Source of the DNA: Escherichia phage phiEC1
Strand: one strand, 5' to 3'
DNA length: 64,000 bases
Sequence record: KY608965.1
Below, one piece after another: positions 501 to 57,590 of the stretch. Each line of letters begins with the position of its first letter. Position 1 is the stretch's first letter. Position numbers and translations under genes: made by a program. The notes under the pieces were generated by a model. It was not told the origin of the DNA. It made no database searches and saw only the letters and a program-made list of their open reading frames with translations.

Positions 501-549
501 CTTTTTAAAAATATTTTGACCCCCTAAAGGGACCCGAAGGTCCCCACAT

Positions 550-816
550 TTACTTATCGCACTTAGCAACATAATTAGGCATATCACAGAATACGGAGCG
601 TGTAACTACTCGACCCTTTGACCATGCTTCAGTTGCTTGTCCGGCTGTGCTATTAATATAGCTTGATTTAATGTTCTCAATACCCTGAGAATGTGATGCA
701 TTTACCGAACCGTTGGAAGGTGCAGAAGACTGGTTACCACCAGCTCCTGTACCTATGGTAGCACCAACAGAGAATGCCATCATTACTGCGAATAAACCAA
801 TTGCTAATTTTTTCAT
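550..816 (-). CDS. Small secreted protein, unknown function
   Basis: 88 aa ORF; N-terminal signal-peptide-like MKKLAIGLFAVMMAFSVGA; Gly/Ser/Asn-rich mature part. Confidence 0.45.
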   Translation of the reverse strand: MKKLAIGLFAVMMAFSVGATIGTGAGGNQSSAPSNGSVNASHSQGIENIKSSYINSTAGQATEAWSKGRVVTRSVFCDMPNYVAKCDK

Positions 817-843: not shown

Positions 844-1830
844 CTATTTATAGTAAGAATTATGATTTTCGAGATAGACTTGCTCAAGGAAGTCATCCCA
901 GAAACTCATATCTACTTTTTGCTGCATACCGTTCTTAGCGGCTTGTTCTGATGCTTGTTCAACTTGGTCAACAATATCTTCTAGGAATTCTTGTACAGTT
1001 TTAAACGTATGTTTACCAAGCTTAACATCGAGAATAAATGGAGCATCCTGAAGTGGGTAAACCAGGTCGCCGGTTTTGTAAATTTCCAATAATTGAAGTC
1101 CACCACGACATGCATGACTCAATGCTTTCCAGTCAATACCTTCGTTGGCTTCTGCCTTACGAGCACGTTCGCCATAGTTCTCTTCAAGTTTAACCAGGAT
1201 GGCATTGAACTCTTTATTGGTTAACGTGTCTTGGAATTTACGGTCTAACAGACTATAGAATGTTTGCTTACCTGTTTTCTCGTTTTCGGTTTCAACCCAT
1301 GAAGCAAATTCACCTACAGGCAGAACATTCTTCATATGTGATAAACGAATTACTGCACCGTTATCAAAGTATTGTCCCCATTCATTAGAACGTTTAAGGG
1401 CTTGACGAAGAACAGCCAGTCGAGAACCCTTGACACCGTATTTAGAAGCTTGCTTACGGACATACCCTAAATAAGATTTCATGTTAGTGGTATAGAAACG
1501 AGACCTGTTATCTTGAATATACTTCCATACATCAGGCAAATCAGATTTAACTACTAGACTTGGTGGAGTGTGAAGCATATCTAATGCGACGGTTTCACCA
1601 TCCGCAGCTAGTTTAAAGAAATATTTGAGACTATATAACTCATGGTCCACGTCGTCTTTTGTGTTCTTAGAAGATGTGTTATTCGTGTTCTTGCTCATAT
1701 GTTCTTTAACGTTACCGGTCAAAATATCACGAGCATGAGGGACATAAATTTCTTTAAAATCGACGTCAGATTCAGGAGTAGACGTTCCATAAAGGTGGCT
1801 ACCAAAGTAAGCCTTAACAATCGTTTTCAT
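844..1830 (-). CDS. Nucleotidyltransferase-fold protein (Pol-beta superfamily motif)
   Basis: 328 aa; N-terminal G-S x10 D-V-D (FGSHLYGTSTPESDVDF) plus a later acidic VALD; start codon overlaps stop of upstream membrane-protein gene. Confidence 0.5.
   Translation of the reverse strand: MKTIVKAYFGSHLYGTSTPESDVDFKEIYVPHARDILTGNVKEHMSKNTNNTSSKNTKDDVDHELYSLKYFFKLAADGETVALDMLHTPPSLVVKSDLPDVWKYIQDNRSRFYTTNMKSYLGYVRKQASKYGVKGSRLAVLRQALKRSNEWGQYFDNGAVIRLSHMKNVLPVGEFASWVETENEKTGKQTFYSLLDRKFQDTLTNKEFNAILVKLEENYGERARKAEANEGIDWKALSHACRGGLQLLEIYKTGDLVYPLQDAPFILDVKLGKHTFKTVQEFLEDIVDQVEQASEQAAKNGMQQKVDMSFWDDFLEQVYLENHNSYYK
845..852 (-). promoter_or_regulatory. T4-type late promoter motif TATAAATA
   Basis: tatttata on plus = TATAAATA on minus, about 29 nt upstream of the ATG at 816. 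Confidence 0.4.
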
Positions 1831-2303
1831 TATTTAGCCTTATATTCAAGAGTAGGACAGATTTTTTCTTTACGAGCTTTAAGGTATTCACCTATTAATG
1901 ATTTCTTACGTTCAATAGGCTCAAGTCCATTTTTAATTCGTTCTTGGTTTTGTGCAATGAGCTCAATTTCTTTATAATATTTTCTGTCGTTATATTTGTC
2001 TAACAACCAAGACGGACCAATTATCAACCCAACAGAAATAAGAGCCATGACTGCTACAATTAAAATGCCTACGCCAATTGAGGCTGGAACTAATGTCCAT
2101 AGACTGCTAAAAACAAAGAATTTAGTTAAAATTTCATGGCCGATGATTATGACTGCTGCTAAAATCGCAAATCCAATAATTGAAACAGCCAATGCCGGGA
2201 TTAACGTTTTCCAAAAATAAGCACACAACGTTTTCGGACGATTCCATGTACTATTAAACGCGGCATAAATTTTAAAGTGCCAAGAGTTTTCATTGATAAT
2301 CAT
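1830..2303 (-). CDS. Membrane protein (two predicted TM helices), unknown function
   Basis: 157 aa; hydrophobic stretches LIPALAVSIIGFAILAAVIIIG and VPASIGVGILIVAVMALISVGLIIG; basic C-terminal tail. Confidence 0.5.
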   Translation of the reverse strand: MIINENSWHFKIYAAFNSTWNRPKTLCAYFWKTLIPALAVSIIGFAILAAVIIIGHEILTKFFVFSSLWTLVPASIGVGILIVAVMALISVGLIIGPSWLLDKYNDRKYYKEIELIAQNQERIKNGLEPIERKKSLIGEYLKARKEKICPTLEYKAK

Positions 2304-2312
2304 AATAATTCC

Positions 2313-2855
2313 TTATTTCAAAGTTGGGATAATAGAATCGAGATAAGCTTTAAGAGCAACTGCTTCATCTTTGTCTAATGTAACGATATGTTGACGAAGG
2401 TCATCAATTTGGCGAATAACTACAACATCGCCATCTTCATAAGAAGGATTAACGCCTAGGACTGTTGTATAGTCAGGGCGGTCCTGATTTGTAATAAAAG
2501 CATTACGGCATTTAGCCCATTGAAGTTTGGCCTTTTTGGCTGTTTCAGATTCAATGAATTCTTTCACCTTAGTGACGAATGTTTTCCAATTATTAATAGA
2601 AAAACATTCGTCTTCAGTTTCGATATTAACCCCACTATAAAGTCCGTGATAAAAACGAACTTGAAGGTCTTCATTAATGTTAATTACAGATGCATGGCCT
2701 GGTGGATTGAGTTTCAAAATCTTGTCCAGTTCCATAGGAAGAATAGTAGCAGCATCATCTTCTTGTGTCAGAACATACACATAACCACGTTTTTCGATAC
2801 ATAAATCACCAAACAACTCGGTTGTTTCAATTACAGTTTTCATATTATTCACCAA
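2313..2855 (-). CDS. Hypothetical protein
   Basis: 180 aa ORF in tightly packed minus-strand early array. Confidence 0.45.
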   Translation of the reverse strand: MVNNMKTVIETTELFGDLCIEKRGYVYVLTQEDDAATILPMELDKILKLNPPGHASVININEDLQVRFYHGLYSGVNIETEDECFSINNWKTFVTKVKEFIESETAKKAKLQWAKCRNAFITNQDRPDYTTVLGVNPSYEDGDVVVIRQIDDLRQHIVTLDKDEAVALKAYLDSIIPTLK

Positions 2856-3146
2856 TTAAAGTTTCAACAAAATTCACCAAATCATTCAGACAAGCATCAA
2901 CCTGATTTTCATAAAAGTCTTCGTTATCATTTACTGCATGATAAGCTACATCATTCAAATCTGAATCGGCTTCACGTAAGTCACTGATAAGGTCCATCAA
3001 TTTATTAGCTTGTTCACGGGTCATTTTACCATACTCGTTTCAATAAGATTCACTATGCCGTTTACCATGTTATAAGTAAACATCGGATAATTGTATTGTA
3101 CTACAACATAAGCGATAAGCAAAAGTTTCATTTTGTTCTCCGTTCG

Positions 3147-3190
3147 TTTTGATAGGACTACTATAACATAGTCCTACCAAGATGTAAACT
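3147..3190 (-). promoter_or_regulatory. Early promoter cassette (PeSL-like)
   Basis: Inverted repeat gataggactactataacatagtcctac containing a -10-like TATAGT (minus), with GTTTAC -35-like box (gtaaac at 3184-3189 on plus). Confidence 0.5.
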
Positions 3191-56591: not shown

Positions 56592-57590
56592 TTATGATAC
56601 TAATTCAATCCATGCAGGACGCAGAACATCTTGCACCATTCTAATTAATTCTTTCTTAACAAGACTCGGGTCATTGGATGATGTTAATACAATACCTTCA
56701 CGAGAAGTTTCTTCTAGAATATCTTTAACAGTCAATCCAGTCACTTTACCGAAATCTTTTGGCGTTACAGTCCCAATCTTAGAAATCACATTGTTAACAC
56801 GATTTAGTGTAACATAACAAGCTAGAACATCAAGCAAGTTTTTGTCAATTTCAGTTAATTGAACCTTAGTTTTAATAGGCTTATCAGACTTTTTCTTTTC
56901 ACTGAATTTAGAGTTCTTGCACTTAATCGCTACACGAGTACCGTTTGGCAGCCATTTAGGGAAACAAGGCTTCAGAACATAACCTTCTGCAGTATTATCA
57001 CCAATAACATTAGCATCAAATACACAATTATTTGCTTCGACAAGGTCTTCCGATGCCGTAGCGTTATAAGCGGCTAAGACGGAATCAAGGTCATTTGGAA
57101 TCATGATAAGAGAATCAAATGTTCCACGTCCAAGCATTGGTGCCATTTTAAAGCCGAATTCATTACAGAAATCTTGCATTTCGTAATCGGTCAAATACGT
57201 ATTATCACCACTTTCTGTATTGATAATGATATCGAACACATAAAAATCTTTTTCACCGTAGTCAACACCTTTCTGGATTCCACCACCAGCGAATTCACCG
57301 AATACTTGATATGATACGGCTCGAGCTGTGTACATGACTTCTTGAACGGCTTTAATAGCCTTATCATACTTCTTGAGTACGATTTCATAACCATAAAAAT
57401 CTTCTGCTGGAAGAATAGGGCCTGTGCGCTTGGCGCATGTGACGTTGTCACGTTCAATTATTAACGAGAAGTTGGTCCCGTGGATTTTCTCACGTGCTAC
57501 CCAAACACCAGTAGTCAAACCATTAGTGTAGAGTTTTTCAATAAACTTAGAGTTGTAGTGGTTTTCAAGACTGCTGTATTTCTTAAACAT
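56592..57590 (-). CDS. rnlB: RNA ligase 2
   Basis: 332 aa; [12 protein letters not shown]...[14 protein letters not shown] ligase motif I; matches remembered T4 Rnl2. Confidence 0.9.

Follow-up and report, generated by a model that had tools for sequence, protein, structure and literature searches.

A phage ortholog of T4 NrdC.11 belongs to the RlaP nucleotidyltransferase family and is preceded by a gene for a two-helix membrane protein

In the 64,000-nucleotide stretch of Escherichia phage phiEC1 DNA analyzed here (sequence record KY608965.1; hereafter the window), the minus strand carries every gene within the first 5 kb, including a gene for a nucleotidyltransferase (NTase) and, directly upstream of it, a gene for a membrane protein. 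The window is from an RB69-like (Mosigvirus) T-even phage, and sequence identity to RB69-like Mosigvirus phages is 96-97% in this region. In an annotated relative, the genes are arranged in the order tk, rI.1, rI, small open reading frames (ORFs), a y05I/MobD.1-family protein, the membrane protein, the nucleotidyltransferase, a protein of 88 amino acids (aa), and a NrdC.10-like P-loop ATPase. The features at the center of this analysis are the following.

844..1830, minus strand: NTase gene (nrdC.11 ortholog), 328 aa, RlaP family PF10127, Pol-beta nucleotidyltransferase
1830..2303, minus strand: membrane protein gene, 157-aa inner-membrane protein with two transmembrane (TM) helices, PHROG 944, no Pfam family
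1828..1832, minus strand: TAATG, in which the stop of the membrane gene overlaps the start of the NTase gene, read from the sequence

Both ORFs are real genes; matches to them occur in 1544 (NTase) and 1204 (membrane protein) phage records. Base 1830 is common to the TAA stop of the membrane gene (1832-1830) and the ATG of the NTase gene (1830-1828), and an AAGG Shine-Dalgarno sequence at 1841-1838 lies 8-11 nucleotides upstream of the NTase start. The original prediction for this locus treated the overlap as translational coupling of two partner genes. The shared base and the TAATG are as described, but partnership was read too readily into them: start/stop overlaps are found in 14 of the 32 adjacent gene pairs of a 96.5%-identical annotated relative, so that the single-nucleotide overlap here is not special. 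It would reflect compact gene packing rather than a dedicated two-component module.

The NTase begins MKTIVKAYFGSHLYGTSTPESDVDF, in which G10-S11 is followed, after ten residues, by D22-V23-D24, and VALD occupies residues 81-84; the 328-aa ORF and the minimal active-site pattern that had first drawn attention to it are thus present as described. In tblastn searches, its homologs belong mainly to T4-like phages of enterobacteria, Aeromonas, Acinetobacter, and Vibrio, and its identity is 97.9% to RB69 nrdC.11 and 79% to T4 nrdC.11. The Pfam family RlaP (PF10127) is matched with 48.6 bits against a gathering cutoff of 23 (E 1.1e-12), a precomputed Pfam listing gives PF10127 for all close homologs, and PHROG 388 is matched at 1e-125. 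A scan of 1.84 billion representative proteins returned 3266 clusters (50% identity) at E<=1e-3 and 752 at E<=1e-30. The NTase is therefore the ortholog of T4 and RB69 NrdC.11 and a member of the RlaP family, whereas the original prediction had regarded it as impossible to place in a known family. The gene is an already known, conserved, and catalogued gene of T4-like phages, whose ORF has been recognized since 2006 (PMC1524935), and its family now has a biochemistry. Many GenBank and UniRef records of NTase homologs bear the name "thioredoxin", which is apparently a propagated misannotation carried over from the gene name nrdC.11.

Conservation of the NTase was assessed in an alignment of 114 homologs taken from the representative-protein scan. 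G10, S11, Y131, K235, R242, and G272 are invariant, and conservation is 96% or higher for D22, D24, N56, D60, D62, D84, H239, and others; the Pol-beta motifs G10-S11 and D22-x-D24 are accordingly invariant or 99% conserved. The AlphaFold2 model built from the same alignment (mean predicted local distance difference test score, pLDDT, 93.7; predicted template modeling score, pTM, 0.85) consists of an N-terminal alpha/beta NTase domain (residues ~1-115), helices at 118-154, a small inserted sheet of three beta-strands (~176-200), and, toward the C-terminus, a helical bundle that closes with helix 308-323. Judged by the order of elements, the model appears to follow the layout reported for the PfRlaP crystal structure, in which the N-terminal NTase domain leads into a C-terminal helical domain and a last helix packs back (PMC12776372). 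In Foldseek comparison with the PDB, the best matches of the model are all Pol-beta-type NTases, although weak ones (aminoglycoside NTases and Hailong HalB), and no PDB chain was found to be similar to the NTase by sequence in single-sequence or 114-sequence profile searches. The nucleotidyltransferase core that had been anticipated from the motifs is thus found by Pfam, by structure prediction, and by structural comparison alike.

D62 and D84, conserved in 99% and 96% of the homologs, are both candidates for the third catalytic acid; D60, at 96%, is about as well conserved. Pol-beta enzymes usually bear the third carboxylate on a beta-strand. In the AlphaFold2 model, D62 lies on the beta-strand 61-67 and D84, the acid of VALD, on the helix 80-86; because of this location, D62 is more likely than D84 to be the third carboxylate. 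The proposal that VALD supplies this acid stands as far as the conservation of D84 is concerned, but the model favors a different residue.

The family to which the NTase belongs has been characterized in bacteria. Two Pseudomonas RlaP enzymes label RNA and neither DNA nor protein (PMC12776372, a 2025 preprint). According to the same study, the bacterial enzymes add one or two nucleoside monophosphates (NMPs) onto RNA 3'-OH ends, favor the 5' half of a nicked tRNA mimic, work best with Mn2+, and partly restore the aminoacylation of a tRNA lacking one nucleotide; the resulting 3'-OH product is compatible with 5'-phosphate ligases, and T4 NrdC.11 is assigned to PF10127, in cluster 5 of the sequence similarity network (SSN) (PMC12776372). 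A survey of jumbo phages predicts the same role for phage RlaP (PMC7824862).

From this family biochemistry we infer that the phage protein would be a template-independent, probably Mn2+-dependent NTase with the active center G10-S11/D22-x-D24/D62 (or D84), which would extend broken RNA at its 3'-OH by one or two NMPs. Its substrate would above all be tRNA cut in the anticodon loop by nucleotide-removing host nucleases of the RloC type, and phage 5'-phosphate RNA ligases would then restore the full-length tRNA. T4-type Pnk and Rnl1 are expected elsewhere, and the window itself encodes a ligase of the Rnl2 type, ~55 kb from the NTase gene:

56592..57590, minus strand: T4 Rnl2-type RNA ligase, 332 aa (PF09414 4e-24, T4_Rnl2_C 2e-21)

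Because Rnl2 is a 5'-phosphate/3'-OH ligase, it could seal ends made by RlaP. The NTase gene would be a conditional counter-defense gene that is dispensable in the laboratory, and the T4 fragment nrdC.11-mobD.3 can be deleted, as expected for such a gene (PMC9825161). The upstream two-TM gene would be an independent accessory gene of the PHROG 944 family, often found at this site in T4-like genomes. To this reading as a whole, an RlaP-type RNA-end repair NTase accompanied by an independent two-TM accessory gene, we assign a probability of roughly two-thirds.

The surroundings of cellular homologs bear on the proposed role. A scan of 185,579 species genomes yielded 80 loci with full-length homologs at 35-52% identity, 72 of them with an intact ORF. 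A gene for RtcB, a Pnkp-type (Rnl1-type) kinase-phosphatase-ligase, Hen1, Ro60/TROVE, or a PrfH-like protein lies within 6 kb in 16 of these 72 bacterial and archaeal RlaP loci and at most 600 nucleotides away in nine. An association with RNA-repair genes is thus found for the closest cellular homologs, but not in the form of adjacency in this phage.

That the phage enzyme keeps the RlaP fold and acts on another substrate, be it tRNA 3' ends (CCA-end maintenance), mRNA to be tailed, or a small molecule of the kind used by aminoglycoside NTases (ANT), has to be weighed at this point. The top Foldseek matches are aminoglycoside NTases and would suit a small molecule, but they are weak (E 3e-3, template modeling score ~0.3, 8% identity), and the conserved basic residues K235, H239, and R242 of the helical domain would, judging from charge only, suit a polynucleotide. 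Aminoglycoside NTases had been tried as an identity for the protein and were rejected, with no family-level sequence match. As for other RNAs, RlaP shows little specificity among nucleoside triphosphates and also labels rRNA and full-length tRNA (PMC12776372), and the phage NTase copies are not beside ligases; in contrast, the closest cellular homologs reside in operons with RtcB, Pnkp, Hen1, or Ro, and protein and DNA were left unlabeled by RlaP (PMC12776372). One phage homolog lies beside a CCA-adding enzyme, a context that counts for RNA-end repair and likewise for a tRNA 3'-end substrate. In this phage, Barba19A of Rheinheimera (locus L010, 3247-5900), a CCA-adding tRNA nucleotidyltransferase, a 139-aa "hydrolase", and, third, the RlaP homolog form a run, which suggests a tRNA-end maintenance cassette. 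Taken over all its variants, we consider a different substrate quite improbable.

Several points nevertheless weigh against an RNA-end repair NTase with an independent neighbor. RlaP activity is known for two Pseudomonas enzymes only and for no phage member (PMC12776372); the Pfam RlaP match spans only residues 6-139 of 328; and the closest solved structure is that of Hailong HalB, a DNA-synthesizing signaling NTase. The other points come from viral genomes. In 79 IMG/VR loci with the closest NrdC.11 relatives, considered with 6-kb flanks, an RNA ligase is near the NTase in only two, and the membrane gene is upstream on the same strand in 44, which raises the possibility of a functional link between the two. 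Such a link is also raised by the position of the membrane gene away from RlaP, where it is often just upstream of RNA or DNA ligases.

The membrane protein itself has two TM helices, at ~29-55 and ~66-100, in both Kyte-Doolittle windows and an AlphaFold model (pLDDT 89), in agreement with the two hydrophobic helices of the original prediction. It belongs to PHROG 944 (3.6e-52) and to no Pfam family. The basic N- and C-terminal segments lie on the same side of the membrane in the model, and the termini are presumably cytoplasmic and form a small domain. S7, W8, H9, C27, Y29, and C149 are invariant in 49 sequences. Two motifs are common to the homologs, SWH(Y/F)...LCxYFW near the N-terminus and KAKKxKxCPxIEF near the C-terminus.

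These conserved residues, as a predicted cytoplasmic Cys/His mini-domain, count in favor of an alternative in which the membrane protein works with the NTase as a single RNA-end repair unit. At the inner membrane, for example, the two-TM protein might tether or regulate RlaP and RNA ligases, or it might sense a membrane-delivered ribotoxin. The shared order and strand in the 44 viral loci argue for such a unit, as does the abutment of the two genes in 13 of them; in the other 31, the membrane gene is 0.3-2.6 kb away, with variable small ORFs in between. The single-nucleotide overlap, kept in T2, is a further point for a unit. Against it, the T2 homolog of the membrane protein aligns in two parts, the N-terminal ~30 residues and the remainder, the TG1 copy is truncated, and T4 lacks the membrane gene entirely and keeps nrdC.11. 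In T4 (locus L002, 3238-4017), mobD, which encodes an HNH homing endonuclease, stands exactly where the membrane gene would be and overlaps the start of nrdC.11 by 17 nucleotides; no trace of the membrane gene was found. In some T4-like contigs of the Aeromonas/Acinetobacter type, two paralogs of the membrane gene flank the NTase gene or stand in tandem upstream of it (L031, 3590-6396; L035, 5998-6878), an arrangement that would again fit a joint unit.

Counted in both directions, co-occurrence is partial. No membrane gene lies within 6 kb in 35 of the 79 viral NrdC.11 loci, and RB43, Aeh1, Cr30, and nt-1 have the NTase alone. Conversely, RlaP is encoded within 6 kb in seven of 33 IMG/VR loci of membrane-protein homologs and in none of the other 26; in ICP1, phiR1-37, Eneladusvirus-like jumbo phages, Aeromonas phage AhFM11, and Cronobacter phage LPCS28, the membrane gene is present and its flanks of 4-5 kb contain no RlaP. 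At bacterial RlaP loci, no homolog of the membrane protein was found, which also argues against a joint unit. From these counts and the replacement by mobD in T4, the pair is separable and therefore not obligate; it is a conserved synteny within part of the Straboviridae and no obligate two-gene module. Conservation of the pair, by which the earlier proposal could be judged, accordingly holds for the membrane-then-NTase order in many T4-like phages, but neither beyond them nor as an overlapping pair. We regard a joint repair unit as unlikely and the independence of the membrane protein as the better reading.

The same evidence bears on the suggestion, made in the original prediction, of a signaling-nucleotide or abortive-infection module. 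Hailong is described in a review as an operon whose two genes encode a TM protein and an NTase (PMC13434031). The present pair has this composition, its start and stop codons overlap, and HalB is the best structural match of the NTase; by analogy, an oligonucleotide or messenger made by the NTase would gate the membrane protein, in superinfection exclusion, abortive infection, or anti-defense mimicry. The analogy is attractive but fails. The membrane model matched no PDB chain in Foldseek at E<1, HalA included (best E 2.7); the NTase, at 328 aa against the 217 aa of HalB, has no sequence-level similarity to HalB and belongs to PF10127, with its RNA-repair neighbors; and the two genes are not kept together as a unit. 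None of the four proteins tested matched a PADLOC defense family at E<=0.1, in a 2023 library that may not include Hailong. A gated signaling pair is, on these grounds, very improbable indeed, and the abortive-infection suggestion is not borne out. Two further identities were tried for the NTase and set aside: the CD-NTase of cyclic-oligonucleotide-based antiphage signaling systems (CBASS), with no PADLOC family at E<=0.1 and no CD-NTase Pfam match, and the MNT-HEPN type VII toxin-antitoxin pair, with 13.3 bits for NCBIfam MntA against a cutoff of 60 and with membrane and secreted proteins, and no HEPN, as neighbors.

The position of the membrane gene beside ligases, which would favor a joint repair unit, deserves a separate account. 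In Aeromonas phages, an OB-fold plus PF09414 RNA ligase gene lies ~85 nucleotides downstream of the membrane gene; in Nanhuvirus, an Rnl2-type ligase gene follows at +260 nucleotides, with one ORF between; in locus L033, an Rnl1-like ligase gene is 15 nucleotides downstream; and in phiR1-37, a gene for a DNA ligase dependent on nicotinamide adenine dinucleotide (NAD) follows at +400 nucleotides, again with one ORF between. In two contigs, the membrane gene is just upstream of NAMPT genes, and Rnl1 is within 4.5 kb. Across unrelated phage lineages, the membrane gene is thus found directly ahead of RlaP, of RNA ligases of three types, or of an NAD-dependent DNA ligase; the loci comprise L012, L013, L027, L033, L034, L042, and L004. 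When membrane-protein lineages are defined as 50%-identity clusters, RlaP or a ligase is encoded no more than two ORFs downstream in ~11 of 27, which exceeds naive expectation. In 12 of the ~27 lineages, including those of ICP1 and Eneladusvirus-like jumbo phages, there is no repair gene nearby, which counts against a joint unit; the neighbors in ICP1 are genes for a deoxynucleoside monophosphate kinase and a pyrophosphohydrolase. The adjacency may be inherited synteny, because nucleic-acid enzymes abound in these early regions and rI shows synteny to the same degree.

A functional link between the membrane protein and end repair is thus doubtful in our estimation, and it is rather unlikely that the PHROG 944 protein is a previously unrecognized membrane-anchored component of phage nucleic-acid end repair. 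If it were, the protein could serve to localize tRNA repair to the inner membrane, to regulate it there, or to recognize ribotoxins translocated across the membrane. We know of no description of the recurrent position of PHROG 944 beside RNA and DNA end-repair enzymes, and the discovery potential of the locus is confined to this uncharacterized membrane protein.

The remaining features of the locus concern its transcription unit and the gene downstream of the NTase.

550..816, minus strand: secreted protein gene, 88 aa, signal-peptide-like N-terminus, PHROG 2243
518..545, minus strand: terminator-like G+C hairpin(s), from the sequence; terminator-like match at 534-518; consensus match only

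The small secreted protein noted at 550-816 in the original prediction is there as described: its N-terminus, MKK followed by a hydrophobic stretch and VGA/T, reads as signal-peptide-like, and in RB69-like phages the protein has two C-terminal cysteines. What lies between nrdC.11 and nrdC.10 differs among phages: the gene for the 88-aa protein in RB69-like phages, no annotated gene in T4, and in T2 a 161-aa gene annotated as "RNA polymerase ADP-ribosylase" with no Pfam match. One hairpin at 518-545 is closed by a UUCG loop (GGGACC-TTCG-GGTCCC), with an A/T-rich run after it, and this site is the probable end of a transcription unit holding the membrane, NTase, and 88-aa genes. On the minus strand at 3160-3188, a sigma-70-like site (TTTACA-17-TATAGT with TG; consensus match only) is located in the 164-nucleotide gap upstream of the ORF at 2845-3024, and it could be the start of a unit that runs through DUF7438, y05I/MobD.1, the membrane protein, the NTase, and the 88-aa protein to the hairpin. 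Another promoter-like site, TGTACA-16-TATTAT with TG, lies on the minus strand at 470-497, past the hairpin and ahead of the nrdC.10-like ATPase gene, which starts at 441, and may be a middle promoter for that gene. Near it is the element ATGCTTTTA, which resembles a T4 MotA box. Promoter matches are as numerous as expected from shuffled sequence (16 against 15.6), and the others, such as an internal sigma-70-like site at 2002-1974, were therefore set aside.

The placement of the NTase in the RlaP family gives it a testable role, the refilling of nucleotides taken by "smart" anticodon nucleases ahead of ligation. If true, this would extend the classic RNA-repair counter-defense of T4 Pnk and Rnl1. 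The practical gains are modest and include mending the widespread "thioredoxin" misannotation.

Among known systems, the kanamycin nucleotidyltransferase ANT(4') has, like the phage protein, an NTase domain followed by a helical domain, but it differs in substrate class, and the two superpose at a template modeling score of ~0.3 with 8% identity. Hailong HalB carries out tyrosine-primed oligo-dA synthesis, and its likeness to the longer phage NTase is by fold only; HalA is a TM ion channel and tetrameric effector, to which the membrane model shows no similarity, and the phage pair, moreover, is not co-inherited. Bacterial RlaP belongs to SSN cluster 1a, unlike the phage clade in cluster 5 (PMC12776372), and the phage NTase gene, unlike genes in the bacterial context, is not adjacent to a ligase; the two nevertheless share PF10127, the same catalytic motifs, and, judging from the AlphaFold2 model, apparently the two-domain layout. 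T4 differs in having mobD upstream in place of the two-TM protein and in lacking the 88-aa secreted protein, but NrdC.11 of T4 and RB69, a COG3541-type protein, is a full-length ortholog of the phiEC1 NTase, and its gene likewise lies in the tk-nrdC early region and is followed by nrdC.10.

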